Below are positions 1-59,940 of a stretch of DNA of 64,000 bases, piece by piece. The notes under the pieces are model-generated. The model did not search any database. It was given only the letters and a program-made list of their open reading frames with translations, and was not told where the DNA came from. The translations under genes were made by a program, and so were the position numbers. How positions within the stretch are numbered: position 1 is the stretch's first letter; each line of letters opens with the position of its first letter. The stretch comes from Psammoneis japonica (taxonomy: Eukaryota), in contig QPGO01000052.1 of the NCBI GenBank assembly GCA_008632985.1, positions 310,001 to 374,000 on the forward strand, in the 5' to 3' direction.

Positions 1-1075
1 TGTCACCAAGAGAGCTGTTCTGCAGAGGAAGAGGGAAACAGGCAACAACATTTTGCAAGAACTGTTTTGTGTCAATGGCCGGGTGGGATGGGGCAGCATC
101 TGGACTTTGACGGAGCATTTGGTGGACAAAGCTTGAGCACAGAGAGCTGTCCACTCAAGCTCCACAAGTGGCACATTTCAAAGGTGACACCAATGTGTTC
201 ATGCATCAACATGCCTCAAGCTGCAAGTCACACAAAAAACCACCACCAACCTTTCTCAACCAACCACGATCACAGACAGAACAGGTCAAGAGGTTCGAAA
301 CAAGAGTGATTACTTCATTGACTCTCTTCTTGTTTCATGCATTCAAGAGCTTGTTCTTGTCCTTCTCAAACGTTTGTTGTGCATTGTTGTCTCTTTTAAT
401 TCAAGTGCAAAGAGGAGCCACTTTTCTTGTTTCTGTCTCTTGAGATGTTGTTGGTTGTTGAGTGATGCAATTTTTGTTGCTTGTCACATTTTTGGAAATG
501 TTGGCAAACCCGATCACTGCTTGATTGTCGACCCATTTGCTGTTTTGAGTCTCCGTGGCATAAAATGCCACAATTCCAGAGCCCTCAATTGTTTCATCAA
601 ACGCAGTGCTTTGAAACACGTCCAACATCAACTCGACTCAGTTGAAATCCCAGTTTGTGGGCGATGAAAAATCACGAATGTCAAACAAATGACTGCTTTC
701 GACATCAAGATCCCCGAGTTCAATCCAAATGTGACGGCGCGCCTCACAGCTTGTGGCCATGACACACACAAGCATGCCTCATTGTTGTCATCGCGTGCAC
801 TCGCATCGAAAATGCTGATGGATCAAAGTTCAGGAAAAGGATGGAGTGCAAATTCATTTGTGCACTCACCAGAGTGGCATTGGCGCAATGACACCCACGG
901 CAGAAGCGATCAAAAATCCTTGTTCATCATTGACATTTCTGCATTGCTCAGAATTTGAAATCTGACCACCACCGTTGAGCATTTAGCTTTCTTTGTGTCG
1001 AAGTGGAAACGACACTTGACGATTTGCACCAACCATTTAGCTTTCTTTGTGTCGAAGTGGAAATGACACTCAACG
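1..1075. mobile_element. Decayed repeat/transposon-like DNA, TpA-depleted block 1 (runs off the left edge)
   Basis: Almost no TA (the few left are TTA/TAA) and excess TG/CA. Composition matches the copia-containing blocks. No recognisable intact ORF; family not identified. Confidence 0.5.
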
Positions 1076-2514: not shown

Positions 2515-4622
2515 TATTTGTTGTCATATGGAGTGGTGATTCATTCGCAGAGAAACATGTCGCTGCACTCATCGCAAGCAGCCCTGAAACTTCATTTTCT
2601 GTACTCACTTGGTGCCGTACTTTTTCAACTTGTCGATGGTCCTCGCACCGTCAACATGGTCGGTCCGCCAGTAGTAGTGTAGGGTAGAAAAAGTTGCTAT
2701 TCTAGTAACCAGATTGTATCAGGGAAAAACAGTGTTGCTTACATAGGATACATTGTGATAGCACTGTGCCGGTACATTAGATTAAGATGGAATAGTTCAT
2801 TCCGCGGTTTTTGTTCGGAAACCCACACGGTAAGTTGCGTTGCGCTTCACAGGATGAAAAACGCTACGCTTGAATTGCTGCACAGGCTTCCACATAGATC
2901 ATTCACAAAATTAAGTGTATTCCATACAGCGAACTGAATTGACCTTACTCACTCGATACTCGCTACAGATAACGCCACATCGTCGTCCTTATCCCAGAGA
3001 AAGAAAAGCGGCGTCGATAGAGCTCTGCTTTTTCCACTTACTCCTCATGGCAGAGAATATATCATTGTGATATAGTTGAAATAATACGCAACACTCAATG
3101 GGTCTGCAGATTTCACATGCTCTGCAGCATTTGCTTCCTCGAGAGCCAAACCCTTCCATTCTCGACTCTTGGCGAAGTTTACCAATAATGTTGGCGTCAG
3201 CAGTCACAATGTATTGACGTCAAAGTCTTTCGGGTCGGAGCATACAGACACGGTCAATGCTGAACATCCCTGCTTGCAAGCGGGAGCAAGCGTACCGATT
3301 CGAACTATCTATAGAAATCGAGTATAGCTACAACTTTCCGACTTTCCGCTGCCTTTCAACAACAACGGACCTTCTCTGCTGCAGCACATTCTTCTTCTTA
3401 CCACCGTGGAAGAGTATTATCTCCCGCCATACTACAGGAAAATTGAACATCCAGAGCCTTGTCAAAAAAAGGCTTGCTCTTCCTTTCAATCGATTCGGTG
3501 TGCTCGGACATCGTTCTGACACCTGCATTAGTCAACCCTTGCTTACTGATTCGAGACATGTTGCGCAGAAGAGTGCAATGAGTTGGCACAGAAGTCTCTC
3601 ACCATCTCAGTGCTCGACCCAACACAGAAACTCTAAATCTGATGACGTCGGGAGGGTCGTTTAGGTCATGGTGCTGTAGACAGCGGGAAATCCAGCCCAA
3701 TGATCGCTGGGCCTCCCCTGAATTGTGCCATCCGCGCCCACGGTTCCCATCTCATTTCGAAAAATGCCACACGTCTATCTTGTAACGACAACAAGCGTAG
3801 GTTGGAAGCAATCGTCAAGGGAAATAGCTTTTCACGAGCGCTCTTGTTGATGTGCCAACACTGCCCCTTCTCCCGTAAGAGGCTTTCTTGTTTCACGCCG
3901 TCATCTGACCAAGTCAACTTGCACTGTAGTCTCACTTTTGCAATGTGCACCAAGCTTGGCTGCGCAGACCCGGCGATAACAATTCGAAACATAGGACAGC
4001 AATTGCACCGTTGTTTGTTCAACTTTGCCTTGCAACATGCCGCACACGGTGGGTCATCAACTGCATGTCCTCCAAGCGGCGATTTCCACTGGCTGGAGAT
4101 TTTATCTTTTCGCTCCAGAGCAACCGACTCGTCTCTTCTTAAAAATGTGCTGTCTGCTGTCTAGCTAGAAGAATCCGTAATGGGCACTGAAGCTCCCGCA
4201 TCATTTTCTTTTAAAGACCTTTGTGCGAACTGCCTCATTTAAGACCAGATGTTTCGAATGTCGACACAAACGCTGCTCGGTGGTGGTGTGATGCGTGATT
4301 GTCGGAGGGATTGAGCTCGAATTATCGCAAAAGCACGATCAACGTTCATTCCGCGCTTTTTCTGCTGTTTCACCAGACGCCAACTGGCCCAGCTCTGAGC
4401 AACAGTTTCTTTTGCAGCCGAACGACGAATTTGTAAGATCGAAGAATCGGCAGGTGCGTGTGCAGTGTGTTGTCGGAGACAGCTGGCTTGAAACGAATAA
4501 GACGTCATGGTCGATTTTCGGGCTGGGGGTGATGCGATGTGATGTGCGGCCTTCGAGCGTCCGTCAGGCGGCGTGGAGCGTCCGACCTGCCTCCGTAAAA
4601 TCCGGGTGTCTTTCTGCTGAGG

Positions 4623-4663
4623 TGTGCGCATTTTGTGCGCATTCTGTGCGCATTTTGTGCGCA
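4623..4663 (+). repeat. 11-bp tandem repeat (tgtgcgcatty) x~4
   Basis: Read directly; sits at the left edge of TpA-depleted block 2. Confidence 0.85.
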
Positions 4664-5590
4664 GGCCTTGCACGCGGCATTTTGATGTGTTTCAGGACAA
4701 ACCTGTTGTCATGCGTGGGACTCCTTCTTCAGCTGGAAGACAACAGTTCTTAAATGCAGACAATTTGTGACAGACACACTCATTTGTTCAGCTTGTTGCG
4801 ATCAGCAGCTGGCTGGGCTTGGCCTCGCAGCCTTGCTGCCTGGGTGGCCGCAGCTGGCAGCTGTGCACTTCCCCCTGGGTGTCTCTTGCCTTGAAGCTCT
4901 TCACAAGCTTTTTTTTGACCAAGCTCTTCACAATGTTTCCTGCTTTTGGTGCTCATCTTCTGTGCTGCAGAGTGCGGTGCTGCCGTGCTCTTCACCTTTC
5001 AGAGGGCGACGGGCTCCAGTCCCAGGCGGGACTTTTTGTGACATTTGGCCAGCAGAATTCTACGTGCGAGCTCCGCATTACAAGAATTCAATTGATGGAC
5101 ATTTTTGTCTTCAACATCAAATGAATGACCAAGTTTGTGGCGCAATTGTGGCCATTGCCGCTTGATGTTTTCGGCAATCTGCCTGCCCTGCGCCACTCTC
5201 AAGACATTTGCAAATGGCGCAGAAGAAAAAAATGTCAAAAGTTGTTGGACGGATCGCTCAATGAGTGCACCACAAAATGACACAAAATTTCAGAAAAGTC
5301 ACGTGCCTTTCCACGTGCACAAAATGCGGTGCGATCCAAAGAACCATCGATGTCACAGCTCAGCAGCACGAGGCCCCACCTGGAGCTGGAGCACGTCGGG
5401 CTGCCGGCAGCCCTCGTGCAGTTGGGGGCTGGAGACGCAGAGACCAGCCTCACGCTGAAGAGCAGCACAGCCAAGCTTGTGGGGCCAATGCTTTCTGTCT
5501 TTGTTCAGTCTCATGTGGCACCTCTTTCCCAAATGCCGTGCTTGGTGACGTCCTTGGCAAGTGCAAATTTTTTGGCACCTGGGTTGCCAG

Positions 5591-5783
5591 TGACAGAATG
5601 CCAAAGGTGAGAGGTGACAGAGGCACAAAGACTCCCTAAAGTGCCAGGACTGTGACAACATGAGTGCTGGCAGATGAGGGAGTGAGAAGCAGATCTCAGA
5701 GAGATCTGCTCGTCCATCTGGATGGTCCGGTCATCATCCATGTGCAGTCTGTCCATCACACGATGTGTGTGGGCAGGCTGACA
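5591..5783 (-). mobile_element. 193-bp LTR (3' LTR of a copia-family element), copy A
   Basis: TG...CA ends (tgacag...ctgaca). On the minus strand it is preceded by the polypurine tract aggggatgg. Homologous to 10434-10626. Confidence 0.85.
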
Positions 5784-8270
5784 CCATCCCCTGATCTGCA
5801 ACATCTCAACACAGAGAGTGGTGCAGATCAAAACAAAGAACAGGGATGATGCAAACAGACTGGACAACAAAACACAAAGTGTCCAGGCTCAACTCGTAAT
5901 TGCAAAGGAACCACACAGCACAGGGCAATGGCATCTCCAAAAAGTCTCCAAAGGCAGCTGGGCACATGTGCTGATCCAACGGAGTCTTCGACAAAAAACA
6001 TCAAAGGCAGTTTCCAACAAATCTTGAAGACAAATTGAGTCTTGCACCAAAGAAATGAATTTGTCAATCAACAAGCAATCGATTGCAGAAAGACATTCTG
6101 GCGAGTCACACTGTCGCCAAATCTCATCGGAAGGGATGGGGCCAGAAAATGCAAACCCACCATGGCGGACAGTGCGGCAATGAAGAAGCAACAGCAATCC
6201 ACCTGACAAAACAACACTTCTGCCACCGGATGTGTTGCCCCTGAAGAACATGTTGGACAAACAAAATGCATCGTGTGGTCGCTCAACATCGGAAGAACAG
6301 TGACGCATCGCAGGTGAGCATCGCAAGGCCTTCAAATGATGGTCGTCAAGTGAGGTTTCTTGATTGAATGTGACATTCTCAACAGCCTGATGTGCTTCCT
6401 CTGTGCCATGGGAATCCCTCCCCTGATCTAAAAATGTGGGGTCATTGTCGGGGACAGTCGACAGGTCAGGACCACCAGGAAAAACACCACTCGACACCAC
6501 AGCGGTCTTGACAGCGAAGGAAGAAGGCAACATGCTGGAAGAGTTGGTGTGATTGTCAATCGTGCACAGTTCTTCTGCACAATGTTGCTCCCTCCTTTGA
6601 CAAGAAAATGAAGGATCATCATCAGCGATGGTGGACAGGTCCGGAGTGCCATGAAAAGCACAAATGGACGCGACAACGGTCCTGACAACGGAAGAAAGAG
6701 ACGGCACAGCAGAAGGTGGTGAGACTCGGTGGCCCTCTTTCACAACAACCCCGCTTCTGTTGGTCTTGTTCGGACAATGGAAGGAATGGCGGCGTCGCAC
6801 ATCCAAAATTAACAACGGCCGAGCCAAAAATCTGAGGACGAAGTAACCTGACAACCACCAACAGAGCTCTGGCTGCGTCCACAGGTGTCACTCGCATCAT
6901 GTGACGGTGCCACAGAGGCAGCAAACAGCTCATGGGTGACCTTGGTGACACAGCATGATCCATCCAATGGATTCAAGCAAGCCCCATTGTGTGAAACAAC
7001 AGGATTGCCAGACACAAAAAACTTTGGGGTCTTGAGCAGGCAAGCGTGGAGGTCGGCGGGAAATGCCACCAATCCGGCAGACAATGCAAGTGAACCGGTG
7101 CCAACAATTGCAGATGGCTCACTCGCAGGAACCACAACAGACACAGGAGACTTGACATCTGGCGCAGTGGCATTCATGGGATCAATCCGAGCACCCGTTG
7201 AGATTGCACCTTCATCTTGAGTCACATCTGCATCATCTTGGCTGGAGGACTTGGTGGCGGCGTCCATCTTGGAATCTTCAAATGCATGATTAGTCAAAGA
7301 CAAGGCCAGAGGTGAGGAAAATGGCAAAGAGGCTTTCTCACATCCGTCATGGTCACCGGAAGGTGAAGGGTCTGGATGGCGTTGATCCTTTGCATGAGGA
7401 GGTCCGTCCATGCCCTCATCGAAGTGTGCACTCGTGTCCACCTTGATCTGAGAGTTTTCAGGATCCTGCCACAGGACGTGCTTGTTGGCATCAGATGAAC
7501 AACCAAGGAAAATGCCCTTCTTGGGGACGGGGCGCAACTTGGAGTGACGGGAACCGGGTTCTCAAACCCAAACACGAGAACCAATTTCAATCTCCCCAGT
7601 GGCCTTGATGTCAGGAGTCATGTCCTGATCCACAGACACAACAGGTGCAGTGGACTCTCCAGAAGACAATTTGGCAGGCGCAATGGATGATGCAGACCCC
7701 GATGAGGAGCCACACGACACATCAACAAGATCATGAATGCTTGCAGAGGGAAGAGGTGCACTCATTGTTGGAAGAGGCACAAGAGCTCCTTGTTTTGCAT
7801 GTGGCACACAATTGGATGGAAGATGCATGTCAGCACCTCCAGGATGCATGGTTGCATTCGCATGGAGTGGCGCAGTTGCTGATGAAGGACCACGCCCAGC
7901 CGTGACGGAATTAGAGACGCCAATCAACAAGGAATTCATGCTCGTCGCTGGATGAGGTAGATGTTCTTGTGGAGGTTGACACTGGGGTGACGCGTTCCAG
8001 CCCCAGGTGGGAGCTCGTAGCACTGACGTGTGACACCAACAATTTTTGTCATCCGTCGCATGTTTCGCACGCAGATTTCTGCATGTGACATTTAAAAAAA
8101 ATTGTCCAGACTCGCTGTTTTGCGAAGCCCCAGATGTTTTACATGACGAATTTATAGAAACAACAATGCGCCAGTTGCATTCTTCAATGTCTGAAGAATG
8201 TAACTGGCCAAGTAAAAAATGATGTGCTTCAATCATGGGCAAGTTTGTGCGTTCGCAAAATTGCTTCATT
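5591..8270 (-). mobile_element. Degenerate, internally deleted Ty1/copia derivative with an integrase C-terminal fragment (~7410-7585)
   Basis: GSRVWV*EPGSRHSKLRPVPKKGIFLGCSS...VLWQDPENSQIKV..AHFDEGM resembles the copia post-integrase motif (GCRVWVR..KL....KGIFLGY...YDP....K....FDEG). Has 3' LTR and PPT. The upstream boundary is approximate. Confidence 0.65.
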
Positions 8271-10433
8271 TTCTGTTGGCGATCATTGACATTTTAACAA
8301 CCGCATGATTTTGCTGCGGAGCTTGCACGCAGAAGTCTGCGGGCCCAATGTCACACGGATTCCCACCTGCGTCTGGAACGCGTCGGGTGCATCACATGTG
8401 GGAGTGCCTCCACAATGCTTTGCAGTTGTTGAGCCCAGTTTGGTTTTGCCCATTTGAGGATTCCCCAAAATGGCCAGGGTGAGGGGGAGTTGCCTTGCCC
8501 TTTTGGGGGAATCCCGGGAAATGAGGGTAATTTTGCGGGAAGGAACGCCTGAAAGGGCTCAGGGGAGGGGAACAAAAACGAATGGAATGCGGCAATGTAC
8601 GGCAAACACAGTTAGGCGGGTGTGCTTTTATCACCATGACGACCGAGCGAGCGAGCGCTCGAGCGAGCGACGCGACACGATGCAACGACAATGATTGCAT
8701 CGACACATCGACACAAAGCAGCCCCTTGTGGAAGAGTGAGGAAAGAAGAAACTTTACCATCAGATCAGCCACATTAATGTTGCTTGTGCGAGGTTCCATT
8801 TTTGCCTTGTCCTTTGCTCTGGAGCCCTTGTGGTTTGCATTTGTGACCACGCGACACAAGAAGGAATGCATGGCACACTGTGCTCTGCAAACAAGATAGT
8901 TCAAAGGAAAGAATGAGCATGAACACTCAATCTGACATGTTTTTTATCAGCCCAGCGAGGCTCCACTTTTGCCTGAGCCTTCACTTTGGATGCCTCATGG
9001 TTTGCATTTGCAGCTGGACAACAACAGTGATTCTAAACGATCCGCTTCATTCTGAACATGAGATGTGTCGACTGGAAAAACAAGCAAGACCATTCAATCC
9101 ACCACATTTTTGTTCGCCACAGACAGCTCTGCTTTTGCCTTGGACTTTGCCACAGATGCCGCATGGCTTGCATGTTTGTGACCGCACGACAAAAGAACAA
9201 GTGCAACGATCTGTCAATGCACCATTTTTTTCCAAACACAATCTGTCAAGCTTCCACTCATTTTGTGTTTTATGCTGTCGATCGTAATGTTGTTCACTGG
9301 ATTGACTGGTGTCATCATTGTTTGACAAAAGCTGTCACAAAGGGGACGCGAGCCGCTCCATGGCGTGTTGCCCACCCTTGTTGCGATTGGTTGATTTCAA
9401 TTCTGATGTGTGGTTCCGCACGTGCCGGCATGCAGAACACGTGGAAATGTACGAGAGGGGAAGCATGGGGAATTGCCGATGCATGGTTTTTTATTTGTGC
9501 ATTGAGCACATGCATGATGAAGGGCAATTTGTGTCGATTCCCCGGGAATTCACCCTTTCCGTAGAAAAACAGGGTAAAAGGTGGCAATCCCGGGGAATTT
9601 TGTTCAAAAACACGGCAAAACCAAACCAAGTTGTTGAACATGGCTGTGTGTGACATGACGTGATGTCATGCTACGTCATTGCGAAATGGTCCATGCACAT
9701 CAACGAAGGATTCATGCTCGATGACTGTGGAGCCGTGTGAGCTTGTTTGGATGCATGTGGGGAAAGAGAAAACTCTTTCCAATCTCCATAATTCCATGTC
9801 ATGTCAGGATTGAAGTGCACATGGTGCGCTGACACAAGAACACAGAGAAATTGCTCGTGTTGCTGAAGATTCAACTTGATCATGGTTGAGAGACCTTCAG
9901 GCATCAAACAAATCGCGTGAGACTTGGCAGGGTCCACAACGCAAAAACAAGCTTCATCCACAATTGTCTTGATGGACTGCACGTCCACAGGATCCACCGT
10001 GTAAGGTGGAACAGCTTGATTTGTGAGAAACTCACGGAGCAAGTCAACAAAATTCTTCTCAGGCCAAGTGTGTTCTGGATCGTCGAAGAACGGATCCAGA
10101 TCCAATGTGGCATCCGCATGCAGCCCATTCAGGGACATGTGGATGTGCGGCAGAGTGACATGTGCTTGGAACTCACAACAGATCTCTGTGTGACAGACTT
10201 GGGAGTGGCCTTTGTGAGGTCGGGAGACGCCATGGTTTTACTTCGTGAAAACATTTTTGGTCATGCACGAGTGGAAATCTCGTGTGTTTCTACGAGCGTG
10301 AAAAATGCCGGGAAAGCGAGACAAAATCCTTCCGGGAACAAGAGATGAGGCTTGCTCGATCGGCTCACAAAACAAATGAGTCAAAACGGAAAGCTTGGCG
10401 CAGAGGTCTGTGGCACAGCGCAAGGCCACAACC

Positions 10434-10626
10434 TGACAGAACACCAAAGGTGAGAGGTGACAGAGGCACAAAGACTCCTCAAAGCACCAGGACTGTGATG
10501 ACACGAGTGCTGGTAGATGAGAAAGTGAGAAGCAGATCTCAGAGAGATCTGCTCGTCTGTCTAGATGGTCCGGTCATCATCCGTGTGCAGTCTGTCCATC
10601 ATGCAACATGTGTGGGTGGGCTGACA
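10434..10626 (-). mobile_element. 193-bp LTR (3' LTR), copy B
   Basis: tgacag...ctgaca; PPT aggggaggg at 10627-10635 (minus strand); lies 180 bp downstream of the copia RNase H end. Confidence 0.9.
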
Positions 10627-10805
10627 CCCTCCCCTGATCTGTGATGTCTCAACACAGAGAGCAGTGCAGATCAAACCAAAGAACAGGGATGATGTGAGGA
10701 AAAAGCAGAGAGACCAGACACAGGACACGAGAAGTGTCCATGCCCAATGCGCAATCAAACAAAGGGGCAATGCGCAGCAGGAAGGCCACCGCAGAAGAAA
10801 AAGTC

Positions 10806-11744
10806 TCAACAGCAGTGTCCCATCATGCGTCGAGCGTGGCGGGCGTGCAGCACCCAGCCAAGAGCCTTGGCAAGGTCATCGCCAGGGTTGATGATGCCAG
10901 GGACATGTCTTGTGACAATCTTGCCCACTTCCTTCCATTCTTGGATCACAAAAAACTGGATCTCAATGTGACGGGAGCGCTTGGTTGGAATCGAATGATT
11001 GATGATCTTGATCGCCGATTCGTTGTCAATGTGCAACGGGGTTGGCTTTGTCTGAGGAAAGCCTGGGTCTTGCAGGACGTGACAAAGGCAAAGAACATGC
11101 TTGGCAGTGGTGCCAGCAGCCCAAAATTTAGCTTCCGTAGAACTCGCAGCGGTCACAGATTGGGTCTTGCACCGAAAGGACACAGCAGCACCGGCTGACA
11201 TGCAAGCACAGCCGGTCGCAGAGCGACGGTTGCGGAGGTCATTGCCATGCGCAGTGTCCAAGAAAGCGATGAGTTGATGGTCACACTCAGGACAAGGGAA
11301 CGGTGGTAAGGTCGGGTCAGGAGTGAGACGTTCGAAGGGGCACGCGGGCAGTTTTGGGTCTCGGGTGGGCTTCTTGCAGTTCAATTCCCAATGCTTGGTG
11401 CGTCTAAGGTGCTTGCAGACTCCTTTGAGCGCATCACAGTGAACCATGGCGGGACAGGTGGAGAACTTGGAGAGGGCAGTGACAGCACACCCAATGTCCA
11501 AACGGCACACAACGTGCGCACACAACAATTCACCAAGTGGAGTGCGGCACCCGAGTCCAGTGGCTTGTTGCAACTCTGCATGTTCCGGAGTTCCTTCAGC
11601 TGGACCAACAGCAGTGTAGAGTTTGCGAACAGAGTCGACCGTCAGTGGAGCAGGGGGGGGCAGGTGAGGCAACCTGCCACTGGTTGCGATGTGTGCAGTG
11701 TGTCCTTTGCCGCATGTGCTTCTTTGCACCCTCACCCTCACCAC
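10806..11744 (-). pseudogene. Ty1/copia (CoDi-like) pol fragment: RT C-terminus plus RNase H, 5'-truncated and hypermutated
   Basis: LGELL..VCRLDIG.AV..LSKFS, DTAHGNDLRNRRS.TG, SSTEA, IDNESAI, RSRHIEIQFF, VPGIINPGDDL.KALGWVLHARHARRMMGH. Confidence 0.93.
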
Positions 11745-12704
11745 TGAAACGCAAAATTTGCGAATCGCAAATTAATTTATAAAAACAAATAGCTCGACTT
11801 TTTTCACGATGAAAGCACGTGCGAGGTCTCTGAGTGCTTCATTTTTCGCTTCAAATGAGCAAATGCTACTGTTTCGACAACCGAAGGTCTGTAAGTGACA
11901 TGAAATAACAAACCAATCAGATTATTATCATTATGAAGAGCTATATGACGTTTTTTTTTGTGAGGAAAGGCGGTGTAATCATCCAAAAAGGTCATTTTTT
12001 GTTGAAATCTTGCGATGCGTCGGCATGAGTTGCTGTCACGAGAAGGCAGTTTCCTTTGAAAATAAGGATTTCTTGTCATTTCTCGTGCATCATATCTTTT
12101 CTTAATCGAAGTAGAAAGAACGCCTGCACCTTGAATTGCACCAGAGGATGTTGGCCGCGTCGCAAAGACGATCTTGGAGGGTGACAAGGGTCGTTTCTCG
12201 ACTCGCCGCGCGATGATTGTGCGGGGATTCGGAATTTGTCGCAAATTTTTCGATTCGGTAGCTCATTCCTCAGGGCCAGGAAACTGATTTGATGGGATTG
12301 TTCACTTCCTGTGGGCAGACATTGGGTTGGCTGCCTCTGATTGTTTATGCTGTGCTGAATCAGCATGGAGTCAGCATGCATTGGCCTGGTCTACTAGCAG
12401 CAATCAGTGTCATGTGCGTGCTAGTACACTCCCCATCAGGGTCTCGTATTAAAAGGCTGTGCCTGTGGAGGCGGGGTGCTTAAGTGAAGCGGGAAAGTAT
12501 GATTTAGAGACGACTGGTGAAACAGTTGCCGAGGAAGAGGAGAGTAGCAGACACCCGTCTACGTGAAGCAACTCTTTGTCCAGTGTAACGGTGGGTAATC
12601 ACACCGCTGCGTTAAGGTTCGACCAATTGTCTTCGATGGTCAACGCCCAGCAATTTAATTTTCATTTAGCTGTCTACTTTTTCTTCTTGATAGAAATATT
12701 GCGT

Positions 12705-15086: not shown

Positions 15087-15651
15087 TTTCTACTCCACTG
15101 CATATACTCTACCATATGCTAAAGTCAACTGTTTACAGCTCGGCACCACTTTGAGTTGTGAAAGACAAGACACCGGCAGTAGGCTGAAAGTTCAAGTGTG
15201 TGATTGTGTGATGTTGTGCGTTGACATGACACGTTTGGATTGCAGATCAACGAATATCATCAACGCATATCATATTATCATCAACGCGCGCTTTATTCGC
15301 TTTCGCGCGAGGTCAGAGGGAACACAAAAAAAGTCACAGACGTTCAATAGACAATACCTATGCTGAACAAGCTACAATTTGGTGGTTGGATCATGCAGGC
15401 TCCTTTTCATTCCATCTAGTAAGGCAAAAGGAGGCACTGTTCGAGCTGCGCGCGCAAAGTCTGGAAGAATAGATCGACCAGCTGAAACAGCGGCATGGTA
15501 TGGTATTTCTATTGTGATTTGCGGTAGGAAAATTGGTCAGTTCATCATATGGCTCTGGTCCTTGGCTATGATCCAAAATGAAAGTCTCGGTTTGATTTGC
15601 ATGCGGCCACAAAACAACACTCGGCACAAGGCTGACTACCGTGTGGCGCTA

Positions 15652-17084: not shown

Positions 17085-20000
17085 GGTCGGTGTTACCGGT
17101 ATTTACACAGGCGCGCCTGGTGTTGGTTGCCCGTGTTCTGGGTTCTGTGTCAAACGCACAGGTGCACAGACGTAGATTGGACGCTTCGCTGCTGGTAGCT
17201 GCGCTGAACGGCTGTGTCCCTCGTTTTGTCCACAGCAGACACAAGTGCACGTGAACAAAGAGTGAAGATAGAACATTAAATGCCACAATCATTGACAATG
17301 TCATGTTTGTCAATCTTATGGAGAAGGACATCCACATTGCTCTTGGGCTTCATTTGGTGGATGTTCATCACCGGCAAACCAGCACAACTTGGTGACATCC
17401 ATGCAAGTGTCGCAAAATGTCTCGCTGGCATCATCTTCGTCGCACGCCTCTCTGATCAACTTGACGACGGTGCTTGCAGCCCACAAGTGGTCAGGTGCAA
17501 CAGATGGAGAGTGCACGGTGTCCATCATAATCAGCAGCAACACACTTTGTCTTGCACTTGCTGCCTTGTTTGTGCTTTGTCGCCCAGCTCTTGACAAGCT
17601 GTTGAAGCTGAGGATGTGGCTTGGCAGTGTTTTGCTTCATCCATTGTGGTCACATGAGCCCTGGCTGGCCAGCCATTTTCCTCCAGATCTTCGTCATTGT
17701 CAAAATTGAAGAACTCCAAGAATCAGTCAGAGGATGCAGATGAGACCCCCAGCTCCCAGCTTTGTGCAACAACGCAACAGCTGCGCACACAAGCTCCAGG
17801 GCAGGAGGACAGTTGAGAGCCTGGTCGTCAACAACTTTGACCACAGAGACAAATGGGTTCATTTGGTTCTGCCCAGAGTGACAACAAGAAAGGGACCTTG
17901 TCTCAGGAAGAAGCTTGACAGCAAGAAAACAAAGGGCGTGTCATTGGCAATGAATGAGCTCCTTTGTTGCTTCAGGCACACACAAAAGAGGGCTCTAAGA
18001 AGGCTCTCTGGCTGCTCCTGGTGCTGCAAATGACTGTGCAAGGCACTGCAACTAAAGACCACAATCAGCAAACATGTGTTTTCAACAATGTGGTGACAAC
18101 CTGGGTTCTCATCATGTGACAGTCCTTGTCAGGCACAAAAACAAAGGGGTTGAGTTGTTTTTGCACACAGCTCCTGGTTTGAAGGCAAGCGATCATTTGC
18201 ACAAAAAGCACAAGATCCAAAAATCATCTCTCAACAGAAAAGAAGTGACACATCATGTTTGCAGATGAAGGCAAACAATTGAAAGACAAAAGTGACAATC
18301 GTCAAAATGTTTAAAAACAGCGACCTTGAAGCAGAAAAATGGCAAGTCAATTGGCCAGGAGTCAATGGCATCTCAAACCAAAAATGACCAACCCAGTGCA
18401 AAATTGGCATGTTTTGTTTTTGTTGTCAGAGCAAATTTTATGAAGCCCCAAAGCCTTTGAATGTCATTGGGTGCCATTTTGCACACAAAGACCACTTGCA
18501 AATTTGGTCATGTTGAAAGTGGTCAACCCCAACCCCCTGACTTCATCTCACTCATCTGTCTCCAGTCTGGTTGGGGGATGCATCAGGGCAGGGGGAGACA
18601 CAGACAGATGGAAGTTTTGTTGCAATTGGTCCATCCATTGGCTGGCATTGGCTTGGTGCAACAGGTCCTTGATGGCAGACCTTGCTCACCAGGATCAGGA
18701 GGACCATCTGAAGAAGCCACAGTTGTCTCTTTGTTTCAAGTGCCATGCTGAACTTTCACATGATGAGCCATGCTGCAAAAATTTGGGCTTTTCCACAGAA
18801 AAAAAAGCCACCAACGCACACTCTCATGGCTGTCCATCTCATGGCTGTCAAAACAGCTCTGACAGCAAAAGAGCAGCTTTGTGCAGTGCCGCGGGGGAGG
18901 TGAGGGATGAGAGTGAATTCACACACCAGCAAAACTTTCTGGAGCATTGGAGAAAAGCTTGCAGCACCCAACTGGGACATTTCATTGTTGTTCCATTGCT
19001 TCACAGAAGGTGCTGCAGACTTTCCCTGCATCTGAAAGAGAGAGGGGCTGGGGTGGCAGAAGGTGCTTCTCTGCATGTGCAAATCTCCAGATGGTGCATT
19101 TGCTTGTGCTGCTGCTCTTGGTTGTGTGGACAAGCCAAAAAACTGTGAGAGCATGCTTGCTCCTTGTTTTCAAACCAAAACAGCACACACACAACAGCAC
19201 AGATGGGGTGTGTGCCCCTGTTCTTGCTCATTGGTTGTCATGGCTGTTGCAGCAATGAGCAGAGCTTGCTCCTCTCCCACAGCCCAAGATTGTGGCTGCT
19301 GCTGTGGCAATGAAGTGAACAATGGAGAGGACCTTGTGTGGTTTCTGCCAGCGGCACAGTGCTGGAGCCATTGGCAGTCATTGCAAGGCTGCAGCTGCCC
19401 TGTCAATGCCAGCCTCACACCCACCTCAGCATGCCAGAGCCCCTGCAGCAAAACAAAAACTCAGACACAATTTGCAGCCCTGTTGCACCTTTTCCCAGCA
19501 ACACCAGTGCTGAAACAAGAAAGAACAGTTGCACTCAGGAGAGGGCACAAAAGCAGCAGCACAAGACCTGGGAGAGAAAGTTGGCTTCCTGGGAACGGTC
19601 TTGCATTCCTTGCAAAAGACAGACTGGGCTTCACAGCTTTGGGCGCTGGAATGAAAAGAAAGAGTTTGCCACTTAGCATGGTGAGCTTGACATGCTGGCA
19701 ACAAAAAAAGGGATGTTTGAGCAGCACATGTTTGCCACAAGGTGTCAGTGTGCCAGTTGTTTTCACTGAAATTTGTTTGTCACAATGAAATGAGGGCACG
19801 CCATCAGCAGAAATTGTCAAATTGGTCTTGTGGGACCCAGCAAAACACTGTCTGAGAAGAGGGGCATCATCACAAGGAGGCACGCAGAAACACAGGTGGG
19901 GCTGAGGGTGAGCAGCTGATGTTGAACAAGCAGAAACCTTGTTGCACTTTCTCCCACAATGGCAAGATTGCTCTGATTGAAAACTTGACACTCACCTTGA

Positions 20001-22139
20001 AAACCCCCAGCTCACAGAGAGGCCAGAGCAGAAAGAGCAAGCAACACAAACAGGCAAGATGCTGGGGGCTCAGCAAGAGGAGTTGGTCTTGCAGCAAGAT
20101 GTCAGGAAGAAAGAAACAATCAGTGCACCCAATGGCTTGCTGATTTGATGATTGCTGTCAACCTTTCACTGTGACACCAACCCAAAGCCAAGCTCAGAGG
20201 ATGACTTGCAAAAAGCAACAATGCCAGAGCACACATGTTGAGCATGGCATGGCAAACATGAGCAACAATGTTGAAGGAGTGTCTTTCCACTGCTGTGCTC
20301 TGAGTTGAGCCATTGGGGACCAGCACAATGAGAGGCTGAGCAATCTTTTTGCAAATCTGTCTGTGATCACTCACCTTGGCCACAAAAAGGCCCCTGTAAG
20401 ACAAGCAGAGACATCACAGCAGCACTGCTTCCCAGGTCCATCACATTTGAATCCTTTGCAGCAATCTTGTGGACACAAAATGGTGCAAGGAGTTAGAGGC
20501 AAAAGTGCCAGTCATCTGAGGAACAGGGCTTGGTGTCTCGTTGGCTGCTGGCTGTGGCTGGGAGGGGTTGGTTCCACCCAAAACACAGCCACTCACCTTG
20601 TCTCTCAAACTTTTCATCTGCTGGTCATGTGTTTGCACTGCAGGGTGTGAGAGAGAGAACACAGTGGGTTGGTGTGACACTCATTGGCTGTTTTCCAGTC
20701 TTGCCCCCCCCATTTGGTGCTGCCAAGCTGAGCTGGCTCACCCCTCTGCAGGCCTCTTGTTTTCCTCTGTTGTTGGTGTGGGCTTCAATCAGCAGCAGCT
20801 GCTCCTGCATGGAGCAAATGTGTGGTGCCTTTGTCATTGAAATGCCAAACTGAGAAAAGCAGAAAAGAGCAGTTGTCAAAGAGCTTGCTGCTCAATGACT
20901 TGATTTTGCACTTTTTTGAATGTGGGAATGCAAAAACATTTGGAGCATTGGAAAATTTCATGATGTCTACAAAAACTCTGATGCAATGAACTGCAGCCAC
21001 ACAAATTTGTGTTTGCTGCACTGCAGATTGCACAGAACTTGAGAATGTGCAGCCACAAATCATTCAGCAGCATTCTGCATGCTTTCTGCCTGCAGCACAA
21101 AGATGTGCACATGCCTGCACTGTCCATCTGTCTGCTTCTGGCAACCATGCACAAAAACAATCACTTCAATTGTCCAGCTGCACAGGCAGCTCCTCTCCAC
21201 AAACTGTGTGGGCCATGCACCAGCAGGGTTTGTGCAGAATTTGACAATGACAGCATTCCATTTTAACAGTGACAACAAGTGGAAATGTGCATGGATTTCC
21301 AGCACAAATTTGATGGCAAGTCAAAGATGGAATCCATCCATCAACATGTCAGTTGCTGCAAGAAGAACAAGCACTCATCTTTCATCTCAACCAACTGGCG
21401 TGTGCTGCAACACACAGCATCAACAATGGCAATGTCAGAAGCAACTGATTCTTCAGCATTGCATCCACCAATGCAGGAGCACATCTCAAATGAAGAGACA
21501 TGCCACCATCACCTCAGCTGGGCCAAGTGCAGCAGCAATGAATCAGGAGAGTGTCAGCCTGCACATTTGCCACTGGCAAGCACAAGCAGACCAGCTTGAG
21601 GTGCAGCTGTGTTGAAATCAGCAGCCAACAGCAAGTGACATGTCCAAGCATCAGATCCTGCACCAGATCCTCCACCAAATCAAGAAAGCAGGAAAAGAAA
21701 AGCTTCCTCTGTTCAGCAGGTGCAGCGCTGTCTTTGTTGTGGTTTGAGCTGCAAAGATTTGCACCAAGAAAACCACAGGGCAAAACCCAAAACAAGGGGA
21801 GCACTGCACTGTGCCAGCTGAGGACAGGGTGCCACACTGGGAAGTGTCAAATGGCTGCAGCACTGGAGACAATCTCAGAGCAGCAGACTCCAATGCTGCT
21901 GCTGCAAAGCAAAAATGGAAGAGGGTCCAATCAGACAACAACTTGTTGGCACCAACCCTGAGTTTCCAACTTTGCAATGGTGGGTGAGGACTCAGCAAGG
22001 ATGAAACAAGAAACCCACAGTTTTTAGAAACTCATGCTGTCAGCATCATCAGCCATTGTCTCTCACTGTGGTTGGAGCAGATTGCAGTCATCACTGCTGA
22101 TGCTGAGTGCACCATGGCTCCAATGCCACTCTCAATTGC

Positions 22140-23130
22140 CACATGCTTCAATGTCAACAACCAATCACAGCCTGCATCAATGCTGCAAATCATGACACCA
22201 CCAGCCAGAACACCACCTGCCACAGCAATGCTGCCAGCCACAATGCCACCAAACACAATGCTGCAAACTGTGAGGCTGACAGCCACTCTGCCTGCAATGA
22301 TGTTCCAGTGCTGCCAACTGAAGTGCAGCCCATGTGAGCATGGTTGATCACAGAGCCACCAGCTGCAACATCAGCACCAGCCACCCACAAAGCTGCCAGC
22401 CACAATGCCACAAAACATGACTCCGCCAACTGCGAGGCTGCCTGCACTCACCAGCACACTGATGGTGGTGCCACCTGCAATGCTTTGATGCCACCAACCA
22501 AAACACAGCCTGTGCCAACACCGCCAACCACAGTGCCACCAGCCACAATGCCACAAAACATGACACCACCAGCTGCAAGAAGGCTGCCTGCACTTGCTGC
22601 AAATTGTGGCACCACCTGCCATGATGTTTTCCAATGCCACACCAGCCAAAATGAAGCCTGCGCCAATGCCGCTGGTCATGGCACCACACACACAGCACCA
22701 CCAACCACAATGCTGCTGAACACTTGACATGATGCCGCCAATCTCAAGGCTGCCTGCACTTGCTGCTGACCACACCCCACCAGCACTGATGCTCCAACAC
22801 TGCCAACTGAAACACAGATTGCACCAATGCCGCCGATGGTGGCGCCACAGATCACAGTGCCGCATGACAGAGACAGAGGGTCTGCCAGCACAATCTGACA
22901 TGCTGGGACATGATGACAACGTGGCACTGGTTGGAAAGGAACTGAGCAATGGATCTCAGGGAGATCTGCTCAGCTGTCCAGGTCTGGCCATCATCCACAG
23001 ATCCAGTGTGCCAACTCCGCCAACTGCAACGTTGCCAGCCATGACACTGCAAGCTGCAATGCTGCCAAATGCTGGACATGGCACCACTGGCTGCAAGGCC
23101 ATGCATGCTTGCTGCTGACCACAGCACCAC
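22140..23130. repeat. Degenerate low-complexity tandem repeats (ccagccacaatgccac.../ggctgcctgcact...)
   Basis: Motifs recur near 22233, 22396, 22539 and 22746. Confidence 0.7.
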
Positions 23131-26100
23131 CTGTGCCATCTGCATCAACATCAGTTTGGCAGAGTGTGGCAGCAGTGGCAAAACGAAACAACGGCACTGC
23201 AAAGGGTGCTTTTTTCCTCTGTCAGAAAGAGTTGGAGCCATTGCTTTCCTGCAACCAGGGGCTCCATGCTCTCAATCTGTCAAGCATGAGCCAAAATTGA
23301 AATGCGTGCATTGTGAGAATGGAGTGCAGGTGCCAGCAAAATCCAGGGGAGGGGCTTTTGTCCATTTTTCTAGATGTTCTCTTGCCTCTCTCTTTTGGTG
23401 GACACACTTTTCAGAGAAAAACGCAGCATGTGACACATTGGCATTTTTTTGGGAAAAGGTTTGTCAACAACACCTGGTGTTGGTTGTTGCTGCCACCACT
23501 GTTGTGCCTTGTTGCAGCCAACTGAATCATGGCATGTGAGTCATGTGTGCCGATGACTCACCTCAGTTGTGTCACAGACATGCACCCAGTGAACAGACAT
23601 TGGGACACCCAGACAGCAGAGGACATCCTCTGCTCACTTTGTTCTTTCCAACTGGCACCATGTCATCATCACTCTCCTGGCAAACACATTGGGTCCTTGT
23701 CTGCCAGGTTGTGAATGCCATCACACCATTTCTCTGTCATCGGTGAGTGCCCGTGTGAGCCGGAGTCTGTGCCACGGAGCCCCACTTTTGTCAAGAAAAC
23801 ACCCTGTCTCCATCTCACTGATTTTTCCCACCATCTGTGCCAACAGGACCATTGCAGAGCACATGCCAGCACTCCATTGAGCATTTCTCTAACCATGATC
23901 AAATTGCCACCCAAAGCTGTCAAGCTGAAAATGACAGAGCACATTGTCCTCAAATTTGAGCCCAGTGCCAAACACAAAGATGCCCACAGCACTCACCTGA
24001 AAACAGCATTCATTCTGATGCTGTTCTGGATCCATTGGTCATTCTGGACGTTGCACACACCCCAATCTTGATGAAGACGCAATCACAACCTTGTGATGCC
24101 AGCTCATTGAAGAGGTCATCTCATGCCCCAGGCATCAAGAACTGCAGCAAACCTTCTGAGCACGGCACCTGTCATTGATCAAGCTGCCCTCCAAGTTCAT
24201 GCCAAAGGATGACATGAGACCTGAATGAATCAACCAACACTTCTGAGAAAAATGACCAAAGCCATCAATGCTGTCCAAGACACTGTCTTGTTCATCAAGG
24301 TTGGTGCCTGCCATCTGCCTCCACATCCGCCCAGTGGAGGACAGGCTCAGGCATGAAAACTGGGACCATGTCAATGCTGCTCCCTCCAAGGCAGCCACCA
24401 TCAAGACCCCATCTGTTGACGCCAATCCACCTGCCAACAACACACCTGCAGGAACAGCTGAAAAATTTGTCAGGGCACTTGCCAGCACACCCCAGGCCCC
24501 AAACTCTGTGAAAAAGCCAAGTGCCAGCATTGATTGTGCCTTCAAGAAGATGCTGACAAGGGCAAAACTGCCTCCACATCCAAATCCAGAAGATCCACCC
24601 TTGTGTTCATGTTCAATCCCACTGTGGTTTGCCACCTGACATCAAAACCAGATCTGAAAATGCAAACAAAAAGGACTGGCCACTTGCTCAAGTGCCCCCC
24701 AGTGCCCCACAGCACTGGCCACATGCACCACATTGATGGCAGTGACAGCATCATTCTGACAGATGGTGTCCTGTGTGTGAACACCATTGAATGGGATGCA
24801 AAAGCTTTTGTGTGCCAATCCATTGTCTGCATGATGATGCGTCATTTCAAGGAATCCACTCATGGCAAACTGTGCTCACTGAAGTCACCATGGCCCATGG
24901 AGCACACATCCATCCACTGTGGTGCTTTGTCAAAGACCATGATGACTGGGGAATTTGCCACTTGCAATGAGATGACCAATGATCTGCCACTTTGCATGCT
25001 CACCCAGCTCAACCAAATAAAAACTGCAGTCTGCCAGTGCTTGAAGGAAAAAGAAACATTTCCTCTCCCACTCGAAGTTCCCAGACACAAGCACCCAACA
25101 ATGCTCTGCAGATGGACACTTGGCACTGAAGATGACCATCTTTGATTGCCAGCTGACATGGCAAAAACACCCTGTGAGATGATCAAATGCACCTGAAGAA
25201 GAACAACCTGATGCTCTTGAGCCACCATTTGGAATTCCAAGATTTTCCACAGCCAAACATGTTGTTGAGGAGGATGCAAATGCCACTTTGGACAATCCTG
25301 GCATCTCAGACATTGCTCAATGTCATTCACCTCCAATGAGTTGTGAGCAAGAAGGTGCACCCTTCCCTGCAGAACCAGAGAAGCAACTGCACAGTGCCAC
25401 AGTTTCACTCCACATGTGCTGACACATTTGCTGCTGTGATTGCATGCACTGTAAAATGCTGTCCCAGCAATTGGACCTGAGTGTGCATCTCCAGTGTCAA
25501 ACCAAAATCCCCTGGTGCAGCCACCCTCTTCTCCACACTCCACACCATGAGAAACAAGCTCATGCACTGGGCACATGCATCACATCTGTCAACAAGCACA
25601 AAGAATTTGCCATTGAAGACACCAAGAAAGCACTGTTGCAACAAGTCTTTCAGGAAGAAATTCAAACTTTTGAGACAACCTTTGCCCCTGAATGCCATCT
25701 GGGCTCCAGACAGCTGCAATGTGTGATGGATGAACACCAATGCTTTGCACCCGAGGCCAACTCACTGGATGAACACATGCCAGAGATCTCCCCAGTTGAG
25801 GCACACAAGACAGCATCTGTCATCTGCCCTGATGATGACTTCTTGGAAGCAGCAATCCCTGCTGATGTCTTCTGTGAACACCCCAATGCAATGTCATGCA
25901 AAGACATGGCTGACAAAGAAGCAGAGCTTGACCATTTTTTTCATCCACAACAGGGTCACAACAGCTCTCCACTTGGCTGGAATGGGAGGCAGGTGAACAT
26001 GAACAACTCAACCAGCTCAACACTCTCAGCATGTGTGTCCCCCCTCAACCTCATCCCAAAGGTGCCACCACAATGCAACCCCGCTGGCACTGTCAAATGA

Positions 26101-26317
26101 AGACAACCAGAGAATGGTGTTCAAGGCAATGTGGCAACAGATCCCAAAAAACAGCACCCATCCTCTGTGAACATGCCTCAATGTGCACTCATCCTGTGTG
26201 GAACAGGCAATGCAATGCATGCTGATCACCCTCAGCACTGGCATGTGCTGTTGGATCTGTGGCTGTGATGCACAAGACACTGCAAGCACCTGTTCCCCAC
26301 ATCCAAATCACCCAGGT

Positions 26318-26672
26318 TTTGTTGTGGCTGCATGCCATGAATGCCATCAGAAACTTTTTGGAAAGACTCCAGACCCAACCCGCATCCTGCCACTCCTCCA
26401 TGCTCTCCAAGGACACCCTGAAAGCAGCATGCTGTGGGAAAAGCACACCAGCTTGATGCTTGCTGATGCCAAGCTCAAGCGCCAGTGCATGTGCTCCATT
26501 GTCTGCAAGGGAACCAAAGTGCTGCTGCTTCAACAAGTTGGCAATTTTGCACTTGCAACCCCAAAGAAGACATTGCCATTGAGATCTGTGATCACATTGG
26601 AAAATGCCTCCAAATGGAGAATGAATCAACCCCACCATTCAAGCACCTTGGCCCATGCACCAGTTTTGATGG
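26318..26672 (+). pseudogene. Ty1/copia reverse transcriptase fragment, possibly preceded by a gag/zinc-knuckle remnant
   Basis: KLFGKTPDPTRILPLLHALQGHPESSMLWEKH...KGTKVLLLQQVGNFALA...EDIAIEICDHIGK.LQ..NESTPPFKHLG matches diatom copia RT (HALQGHPESG.LWE; LLRQVDDFA). Confidence 0.85.
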
Positions 26673-27486
26673 ACTGGGCGCAGCTTGCGATGTCGTGTGC
26701 TTGCATGCCCAAAAGGTGTGCACCAGCTGTCTGGCCACCACAAGTGTGCATTGCGTGTAGACCTCTTGTTTGCTCTCTTCCCTGCCTCCTCCTTTTCCTG
26801 CTCCTTTTGTCATTGAGAGGGGTTGCTGCTGCATTTGTCCCGAAACTGCCGGCGCGGCGCTTTGAACAAGGCTTTTTGCTGCTGCGCTCATTTTTGAGTG
26901 CAAAAGAAGCTGGTTGTGTTCACAACAGGGCTTGTTTGCAAAAGCAAGAACATCAGGTGAACATCCACAGGTGCCACAATCTGGGCAGCATGACAGATGA
27001 TGCAATCATTGACACCCCTCCAAAGCGCAGCAGGGCACTCGCAAACTTCTGTGATGTGTGCCGGACCTCTTTGGCACACAAGGAGTGCAAAGTGAGCAAG
27101 AGTTTGTGTGCAAGCCTCCTCTGACAAGTCTGTCAAAACACAATTTTCAAACAGTGGTCAAAGCCGTGTTTTACTTCATCCTCTGCTTCAGGCACCGTAC
27201 AGCACTGCTGTGGCCTGTGGTTGTTACAAGAATGACCGTCGTCCGTCGTGCGTGTCTGGCGGTCGCGCGTTCTTCGGCGATCGAGCGAGCGCGAGCGGAG
27301 CGAGCGAGCGAGGTCAGTGAAAAACTTGTCTGGCTGTCGTCCGTAATCTTGAAATGCGAGTTTCGCGAGGTTGGAGGTGTCCGTTTTTTTTTTTGCTTTC
27401 CTTTTTCAAAACACAGTTGTTCATCGTTACGGCACTCCAAATAACATCAACAAGCCATCCGTTGATACAAACACACAAATAGCAAT

Positions 27487-56728: not shown

Positions 56729-57090
56729 TGCCCGTTGAAGTGTTGAGGAGCGATCATATCAGATATGGCTTTATGTGCTTCCCGCGCTTTCACCTTCGCG
56801 CGCGCGGGCGCGCAGACGTGAATCTTGCGAACCTATCCGGGAGTCAGACGGAAACCGGTACTGACATTCCTACAGAAGAACTTAGTAGAATTTTACGTCA
56901 GAATCAACAAGCAGACACACCGACAAGCAATGCGCGATTCATTTCATTCCCGCCCTCTTGTTTTTCAGCGATCTCTCGCGAATGAATCCATCTGCATCAT
57001 CGCGAAGATCGCGAAGATGCCAGCGATGCTGTGCCACAACACGAAGTGAAGCAAGAACAAAGCAAGCAGCAAAGCAATCAAACATCGACC

Positions 57091-59269: not shown

Positions 59270-59940
59270 GAGACCACTTCATAGCTGGGTATGTTTGTTG
59301 TCGATTGGTGTTGTGCGTGTTTTTGTCCTCTCAGGTAGTGTAATGGTGTAAACACTTTTTGTGTGTATTTTCTTTACGATCATGACGCTTGCAAGTTGCC
59401 ATGACAATATGCTTCCGCGAATTCCTTTTGCGAGGCCACTTCTGCACGCACGTCCAATGCCAAAGTCACGGCCACATTTGTTGTCTCTACCAAAGATTGT
59501 TTTTTAATTCATAGCCTTGGTAGACCTCCTAGCTAGAGAGAGCGAAGCTACAAACAGAAGCATACTTGGACCCTCTTTCGATCTCCAAAGCCATCCTAAT
59601 AGGGCCCTACATCACTAAGACCAGAATTAGATTAACGTTTTAGTAGCGAGAGACTCTCTACTTTAATATAGAGGGCCTATCTCTGGAGTAGCTACTCTCT
59701 AAGCTAGCTCTACTCTAGCTAGTCTAGAGTAGAGGGTCCCACCGGCAGGCAGTTGCAGGTTGCGGCTACTACGGTACTCATAAATCCTAAAATAGGGTTC
59801 GCAAAACCGTTTGATCGCGCACGCAATCAGAATTCGCACATCCAAATCAATCGCCAATCGCCAAAGGCGAAGACGCGACAGAGATTGGCATCTATGGTAT
59901 CAACTTCAAACTTCATCAATCTCTATAAGCATAATTGACA

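Follow-up and report, generated by a model that had tools for sequence, protein, structure and literature searches.

The window analyzed here is a stretch of 64,000 nucleotides from the genome assembly of Psammoneis japonica (GCA_008632985.1, contig QPGO01000052.1, positions 310,001 to 374,000 of the forward strand), and all positions below are counted from its first letter. On its minus strand, at 10806-11771, lies an open reading frame (ORF) that is a dead remnant of a copia-type retrotransposon, and from which the dinucleotide TpA is nearly absent. Between 10806 and 11744 there are 5 TA against 45.8 expected from base composition, or 26 predicted from the observed-to-expected ratio (rho) of host DNA in the window (Poisson p = 6e-7), together with a surplus of TG (88 vs 62 expected) and CA (98 vs 53 expected). 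We propose, with a probability of roughly 0.7, that this is the product of a defense-like, TpA-specific A:T>G:C hypermutation of integrated double-stranded mobile DNA, near complete in this case. Comparison of related copies shows that the changes are nearly equal on the two strands, prefer TAY contexts, occur site by site and independently in each copy, and are separate from the decay of CpG.

The copia remnant and the TpA-erased blocks

The element fragment on which the analysis centers is:
10806..11771, minus strand: stop-free ORF of 321 aa, stop codon at 10806-10808

Judged by homology, this ORF comes from a Ty1/copia-type pol truncated at its 5' end, of which it is the hypermutated C-terminal part, with the reverse transcriptase (RT) connection and RNase H. 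Database searches returned 33 long relatives carrying RVT_2, gag-pre-integrase and SH3_retrovirus domains, with E values down to 2e-98; the best of these is 58% identical and the first 30 span 44-58%. There are 59 shorter relatives as well, two of them labelled by their sources as ribonuclease HI or Ty1/Copia ribonuclease HI. A family profile built from 15 full-length relatives matches 10815-11657 on the minus strand at profile positions 1107-1387 (E = 2e-131). No relative above 62% identity was found in the database searches, and the matches of highest identity were partial; at this distance DNA-level polarization of the window's own family is not possible, and a metagenome family (below) was used for the mutation spectrum. 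No Pfam family matched the ORF at E <= 0.01, and at E <= 10 the sole match was a chance-level Dermatopontin; the fragment lies beyond RVT_2, which is itself missing through the 5' truncation. Sequence comparison with solved structures likewise gave nothing below E = 0.9. Everything upstream of the RT-connection part is missing from the element: frame and homology both stop at about 11771, and ordinary TA-rich DNA continues from there. Repeat and profile searches across the window recovered the pol C-terminus and a 3' non-coding end; there is no pair of long terminal repeats (LTRs), and no complete element with LTRs, primer-binding site, polypurine tract, gag, protease, integrase and RT.

The amino-acid sequence records the changes directly. 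Conserved columns were defined as those with the same residue in at least 80% of 30 aligned relatives, and at these columns the ORF keeps Tyr at 0 of 9 positions vs 105 of 125 for other residues (Fisher p = 3.4e-7). One of the nine Tyr columns falls in the non-homologous N-terminus, and the remaining eight read Cys (5), His (2) and Phe (1). Among 21 single-base changes at conserved columns, seven are T[A>G] (five Tyr>Cys, and two Thr>Ala after a codon ending in T) and three are [T>C]A (two Tyr>His, and one Leu CTA>Pro CCA); the remainder comprises three CpG transitions, four other transitions and four transversions. At columns conserved for Lys, Asn, Asp, Glu, Gln or His, whose codons have A, G or C before the A, the residue is unchanged in 24 of 28 cases. 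Counted over residues 40-321, Tyr occurs once in the ORF (mean of 31 relatives 13.1), Cys 18 times (4.5) and His 16 times (11.9).

A sequence-only reading of this DNA had claimed that Tyr was replaced by Cys or His in copia motifs, that Thr became Ala where the preceding codon ends in T, and that a single Tyr was left. All of this was borne out: no conserved Tyr is kept in the homologous part (0/8), the three Thr>Ala changes seen with 14 relatives aligned all follow a T, and a recount found exactly one Tyr in the 321 residues. Its list of motifs stands at most of the diagnostic columns and is weak at two, VHCDAL, where relatives mix Tyr and Phe, and PLHIDN, where 4 of 31 relatives also have His. 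The closest intact relatives have Tyr or Thr at the diagnostic columns, not Cys, His or Ala. Strong bias to one strand had been named as a finding that would count against it; on the sense strand of the ORF there are 7 A>G vs 3 T>C, which is no strong bias.

The same replacement can be followed through the protein databases. When 92 database relatives were scored for Cys or His at 11 Tyr columns, 61 had none and 8 had four to six, and the window ORF has 9 of 11. Hypermutated dead copies are thus already present in protein collections as predicted proteins, an annotation trap that includes P0022, P0178, P0188 and P0158, each with Tyr replaced by Cys or His at 4-6 of the 9-11 columns scored. P0032 (eukprot name Psemu1) was considered as a further case and rejected; its Tyr residues are intact, and the changes it carries are Arg>Cys.

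Seen over the whole window, the ORF is part of a larger pattern, which the sequence-only reading had not noticed. About 18 kb are affected, in three blocks that together contain 65 TA vs ~1124 expected:
1..984, no strand: TpA-erased block 1, which runs off the window start; TA 3 vs 74 expected, CpG rho 0.52
4597..11773, no strand: TpA-erased block 2, a mosaic of transposon fragments; TA 46 vs 432 expected, rho 0.11
17318..27172, no strand: TpA-erased block 3; TA 16 vs 618 expected, rho 0.03

The borders are mostly sharp, as seen from the flanking TA positions (984/1038, 11617/11773, 17317/17528 and 26758/27172). On its left side block 2 sets in more gradually; on the right, with TA at 11617 and then at 11773, 11778, 11780 and onward, its border coincides with the end of the copia ORF. 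G+C content is alike inside and outside the blocks, and non-coding transposon DNA carries the loss equally with coding parts. In the ~46 kb of host DNA outside the blocks rho is 0.57 for TA and 0.99 for CG, with a mild excess of TG (1.14) and CA (1.17); this low host TpA could come from ordinary avoidance of the dinucleotide, or from the same process at work weakly throughout the genome. Block 2 has rho values of 0.62 for CpG, 1.58 for TG and 1.63 for CA. In block 3 CpG is nearly erased too (rho 0.13, with TG at 2.11 and CA at 1.76), and, unlike in block 2, TG and CA are almost the sole pyrimidine-purine steps remaining. The decay of CpG and that of TpA are uncoupled between blocks 2 and 3, perhaps through age or through different methylation.

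Two consequences are visible in the letters themselves. A change of TA to TG or CA destroys TAA and TAG and creates no new stop, and the blocks therefore contain long false ORFs in all six frames; on both strands of block 3 the stop triplets are 15 TAA, 10 TAG and 477 TGA, and those of the other blocks are likewise almost all TGA. The ORFs of the blocks are rich in Cys and His and nearly without Tyr. The few surviving TA also have a distinct context: RTAY accounts for 2 of 65 in the blocks vs 499 of 1734 in host DNA (p = 3e-7), and YTAR for 24 of 65 vs 315 of 1734 (p = 5e-4). RTAY is thus favored as a target and YTAR disfavored on both strands, by which the window independently confirms the TAY context rule derived from related copies.

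Related copies and other element fragments

A scan of metagenome contigs, from sources including the Ga01631xx series and ORBV01, yielded 80 related loci. Their rho(TA) is at least 0.55 in 64 cases and below 0.3 in 7, the lowest being 0.07, and intermediate stages of TpA loss are thus visible in related environmental elements. Fifty-five loci form one family at >80% nucleotide identity, in which changes were polarized by the majority state of each column. In L049, the copy most affected, A>G occurred at 33 of 52 sites after T vs 2/53, 7/81 and 2/67 after A, C and G, and T>C at 16 of 51 sites before A vs 2/83, 5/76 and 6/83 before T, C and G. The pattern is the same in L080 (59/104 A>G after T and 31/101 T>C before A) and in L035 (42/74 and 21/73). 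The least affected copy, L070, has 0/39 and 0/39, and the loss is graded among copies from 0 of 39 sites up to ~94%. Counting changes at TA and in other A or T contexts on each strand, which the sequence-only reading had put forward as the check on its claim, therefore confirms the specificity of TA to TG or CA.

The family has 126 ancestral TA sites, and the outcomes at these sites are informative as to how the process acts. L049 reads TG at 39, CA at 18, TA at 4, CG at 1 and another dinucleotide at 1; L080 reads TG at 69, CA at 38, TA at 9, CG at 1 and others at 7. No copy has the double product CG more than once, so the process needs an intact TpA. Where L080 and L049 can be compared, both read TG at 21 sites and both CA at 3, and they are discordant at 26, which matches independence. 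Of 17 copies tested for runs of TG vs CA along their length, 15 show run lengths that do not exceed chance. Across eight hypermutated copies 526 sites are resolved, 315 as TG and 211 as CA, and a logistic model explains most of the TG excess by the 3' neighbor: relative to A, a 3' C raises the rate by x2.2 (CI 1.5-3.2) and T by x1.7 (1.2-2.6), and the effect of G (x1.2) is not significant. After correction for the 3' neighbor the residual bias to the sense strand is x1.25 (95% CI 1.00-1.49), and self-complementary tetranucleotides read TG in 39 cases vs CA in 52. We also observed that, in five hypermutated copies (L080, L035, L049, L050 and L069), 43 of 57 residual TA sit in CTA, with survival at 43/199 after C vs 1/83, 4/75 and 9/93 after A, G and T; this survival after a 5' C may be an effect of the -2 position beyond the TAY rule.

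In locus L076 the loss follows the element, with rho(TA) of 0.21-0.37 inside and 0.5-0.95 outside. CpG transitions occur in every family copy, at ~2-25% of CpG sites, and do not track the loss of TA; in L059, for example, CpG changes number 21/104 vs TA changes 7/83.

Contigs from sequencing runs offer a further view of the copia family. The runs that matched form three entries from one sample and one study, with no RNA data set listed. In run X1, 112 contig pieces match the stretch at >=99%; run X2 reaches it only in two bins near its right end. At >=80% likeness X1 has 1070 contig pieces on 10300-11900, with 209 variable places of which 172 are transitions, which shows that this genome has many, variable copies of the copia family. 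At 10892/3 and 11561/2, X1 contigs read CA where the window reads TG. Forty of the 209 variable places were inspected and have mixed contexts; they were not used to polarize changes.

The window contains further fragments of mobile elements, all of them within the blocks:
7403..7585, minus strand: isolated integrase C-terminal (SH3-like) fragment, copia-type, in block 2 (profile positions 539-599, E = 2e-15)
25543..26682, plus strand: frameshifted RT fragments of a second, more distant copia-type element in block 3, found with the family profile
10434..10805, minus strand: 3' non-coding end of the copia element (3' untranslated region plus an LTR-like segment), repeated at 5591-5960
5591..5960, minus strand: second partial copy of this 3' end, whose 265-bp core (5591-5855) pairs with 10434-10698

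Against PF25597 (SH3_retrovirus) the integrase fragment scores E = 8e-5, under Pfam's cut-off. The second copia-type element keeps conserved Tyr at 0 of 8 columns, reading Cys at five and His at three. Over the window the family profile matched nothing beyond the pol, integrase and RT fragments. A Pfam search of 60 of the 103 block-overlapping ORFs of >=90 aa gave one weak SH3_retrovirus match and left 59 blank, including the four ORFs searched from block 1.

The shared 3'-end sequence ends in TGACAG on the plus strand, that is ...CTGTCA on the element strand. The LTR-like segment within 10434-10805 is a putative LTR, and no polypurine tract was recognised there. In the 265-bp core the two copies are 88% identical in bases and 99.2% identical in a purine/pyrimidine code. 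Their 19 substitution events include 10 adjacent TG<->CA flips, with single TA/TG, TA/CA, CG/TG and CG/CA differences too. Such flips imply that each copy resolved a palindromic pyrimidine-purine step on its own. Past about 5960/10815 the two copies resemble each other no more than shuffled sequence does.

Several features of the neighborhood deserve mention. A phosphoglucomutase gene of several exons at 13284-15089 (minus strand) lies 1.5 kb from a hypermutated block and has ordinary TpA content; one exon is 70% identical to a protein of the diatom Fistulifera solaris, the one organism named among at least 120 matches listed, of which the closest are 75% identical. We take this, with moderate confidence, as a sign that the host is a diatom. 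A tandem duplication of ~2.2 kb (57084-59247 and 59934-62284) is diverged, at 68-73% nucleotide identity, and normal in TpA content; duplication as such is here without TpA loss. A tandem array at 2014-2480 consists of ~117-bp units at 93-97% identity, periodic arrays occur at 32490-33701 (~400-bp) and 34314-35172 (144-bp), and degenerate ~160-bp repeats lie within block 3 at 22143-22869.

Proposed mechanism and alternative explanations

In the reading that we favor, TpA is converted to TpG or CpA by an A:T to G:C transition on either strand, and a site becomes immune once one base of the TpA has changed. The preferred target is the A in T-A-Y (equivalently R-T-A on the other strand), single sites are hit independently of their neighbors, the same ancestral site is resolved differently between copies, and the activity is confined by sharp borders to transposon-derived DNA. 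The chemistry may most likely be an enzymatic deamination of adenine to hypoxanthine at TpA, which is a guess; alternatively, thymine could be modified at TpA and miscode as C, which would produce an identical pattern, TpA being self-complementary. Under these changes a Tyr codon turns into one for Cys or His, a Thr codon in T|ACN into one for Ala, and TAA and TAG stops vanish; CpG decay adds the same TG/CA end state, uncoupled from the loss of TpA. Any candidate enzyme must reproduce the context rule, namely TAY on either strand, near strand symmetry and no processivity.

An unlikely alternative is that the changes were made before integration, by an ADAR- or ADAT-like deaminase acting on retrotransposon RNA or by a deaminase acting on reverse-transcription intermediates. 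Every identified target is a retroelement, the independence of copies and the sharp element borders would fit equally, and a preference for a 5' U recalls known RNA adenosine deaminases, a likeness also drawn in the Discussion of a preprint on the chlorarachniophyte Bigelowiella natans (Mettrop et al., bioRxiv 2026, doi 10.64898/2026.01.13.699255). Editing of sense RNA, however, gives A>G only, and the ~40% of sense-strand T>C (211 of 526 sites, under the same 3'-neighbor rule) therefore supports action on double-stranded DNA, as do the palindromic contexts, in which CA is the more frequent product (39 TG vs 52 CA). Fifteen of 17 copies lack strand-coordinated runs, and copies that have lost their conserved Tyr and up to ~94% of their TpA could not have passed through repeated autonomous cycles. 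In B. natans, moreover, the preprint describes the signature as arising de novo in integrated, single-copy DNA-virus sequence. From the lack of strand coordination, the Tyr-less copies and these de novo changes we infer that the process acts after integration, on double-stranded DNA. The sequence-only reading had preferred such a process to RNA editing, and this preference fits the strand data and the B. natans lines, which is short of proof for this genome.

It is highly improbable that the pattern is an artifact of sequencing or assembly, in which heavy base modification at TpA in silenced DNA was miscalled as G or C. The sole run containing the window comes from one sample, probably its source, and its library type is not on record; the same signature is nevertheless present in at least two metagenome assemblies (the Ga01631xx series and ORBV01, possibly from one campaign) and in predicted proteins from several sources, the 112 X1 contig pieces agree with the stretch at >=99%, and the B. 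natans study was based on Illumina reads. Still less probable is a native composition, in which the element lineage avoids TpA by selection or codon usage and no hypermutation has taken place. Host DNA is itself under-represented in TpA (rho 0.57), which speaks for it; against it, conserved Tyr are kept at 0/8 and 0/8 columns in the two elements of the window, 64 of 80 related loci have rho(TA) of at least 0.55, non-coding parts are equally affected, and copies of a single family span 0-94% loss. Methylation and deamination of CpG alone, starting from an ancestral CG step, is the least probable explanation. The blocks are poor in CpG (rho 0.52, 0.62 and 0.13) and CpG transitions are real, being seen in 3 of the 21 changes in the ORF, in single differences of the repeat pair and in all family copies, but this decay can neither remove TA nor turn TAY into TGY or CAY, the family majority state at the affected sites is TA, and the loss of CpG does not track that of TA. 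CpG decay is contradicted as the sole cause, yet is a real second process. GC-biased gene conversion was also considered and is rejected, A and T outside TpA being barely affected.

Several points weigh against hypermutation of integrated mobile DNA, or limit what the data can say for it. Most block DNA is without recognisable homology, and the description "transposon-derived" is established for the copia fragments only. Polarization by majority may mis-assign states that are common to related copies. Two of the 17 copies tested, L035 (p = 0.005) and L023 (p = 0.016), have fewer strand runs than chance. The TG<->CA flips of the repeat pair could go back to an ancestral TA or CG equally, and the pair is made up of two 3' ends of one family, not of the 5' and 3' LTRs of one element, and therefore cannot date the process relative to integration. 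In the metagenome loci of >=5 kb, too, no hypermutated element yielded an LTR pair, the only LTR-like pairs being in L031, which is not hypermutated, and a 79% match in L076. Finally, the reads covering the window belong to one sample and one study that are probably its own source, so their confirmation of the window is not independent, and part of the stretch has low read cover.

Comparison with known systems

The closest counterpart of the proposed process is in B. natans. In mutation-accumulation lines of this species, 231 of 302 nuclear mutations fell in two integrated regions, one of a nucleocytoplasmic large DNA virus (NCLDV) and one of a virophage; 230 of these 231 are A>G or T>C, and according to the preprint's text the GC-biased ones are all at TpA and arose during vegetative propagation (Mettrop et al., doi 10.64898/2026.01.13.699255). 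The same preprint reports 124 clusters in the genome that are depleted in TpA and enriched in CpA and TpG, with reverse-transcriptase and DDE domains enriched among TpA-poor genes. Its authors hypothesize a deamination of adenine to hypoxanthine with an ADAT2-like candidate and, from two viral inserts in a single species, suggest that TpA hypermutation may be an immune process conserved among eukaryotes. The likeness, as far as the preprint's main sections describe it, lies in A>G and T>C at TpA on either strand, giving TpG and CpA in foreign or mobile DNA with the host spared. The differences are several. B. natans is a chlorarachniophyte (Rhizaria) and the window is from a probable diatom; the described target there is a single-copy giant-virus insert, vs LTR retrotransposons of a multi-copy family as the targets identified here; and rho(TA) is given as 0.45 in the B. 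natans NCLDV region vs 0.03-0.11 in the window. The origin de novo was shown in the B. natans lines, and the pattern of the window is known from sequence comparison alone. The TAY rule, the independence of sites and copies and the near absence of the CG product are described here and do not appear in the main sections of the preprint. In the literature searched, which left most subscription journals outside, no report of TpA hypermutation in a diatom was found and the B. natans preprint was the only relevant work; the passages seen of the paper on CoDi elements, the copia elements of diatoms (Maumus et al. 2009, PMC2806351), mention neither dinucleotides nor deamination.

The signature shared by the viral inserts of B. 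natans and this genome suggests a wider genome-defense process. The signature is now seen near saturation in LTR retrotransposons of a probable diatom, which widens both its host range and its target range. We put forward, as a tentative idea to which we give somewhat less than an even chance, that diatoms and chlorarachniophytes, and perhaps much of SAR, share an enzymatic defense that erases TpA from silenced mobile or viral double-stranded DNA. If so, such a defense would destroy Tyr codons, and presumably signals of the TATA and AATAAA type as well, without ever making a stop codon, and the enzyme should be findable through comparison of the two lineages.

Three better-known processes leave comparable traces. 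Decay of CpG through methylation and deamination has the same products, TG and CA, and co-occurs with the loss of TpA here, most strongly in block 3; it differs in its starting dinucleotide, and its extent is uncoupled from that loss. Hypermutation by ADAR or APOBEC3 is strand-exclusive and clustered, on RNA or minus-strand cDNA, with a 5' U favored by ADAR, which to our knowledge is known from animals. Like these systems, the proposed process would be a deaminase-type restriction that leaves hypermutated copies behind; unlike them, its changes are near strand-symmetric and show no strand coordination.

Repeat-induced point mutation (RIP) of Neurospora and other fungi changes C>T at CpA on both strands, and yields an excess of TpA and many stop codons. 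As in RIP, which acts as a genome defense, transposon DNA in the window is dead through context-specific transitions on both strands. The direction of change is the opposite one, however, with TpA at a rho of 0.03-0.11, TG and CA at 1.6-2.1, and TAA and TAG erased, and the duplication that triggers RIP contrasts with the single-copy target described for B. natans. The shared defense, if it exists, would thus be a mirror image of fungal RIP, proceeding site by site with a preference for T-A-Y until no TpA is left.

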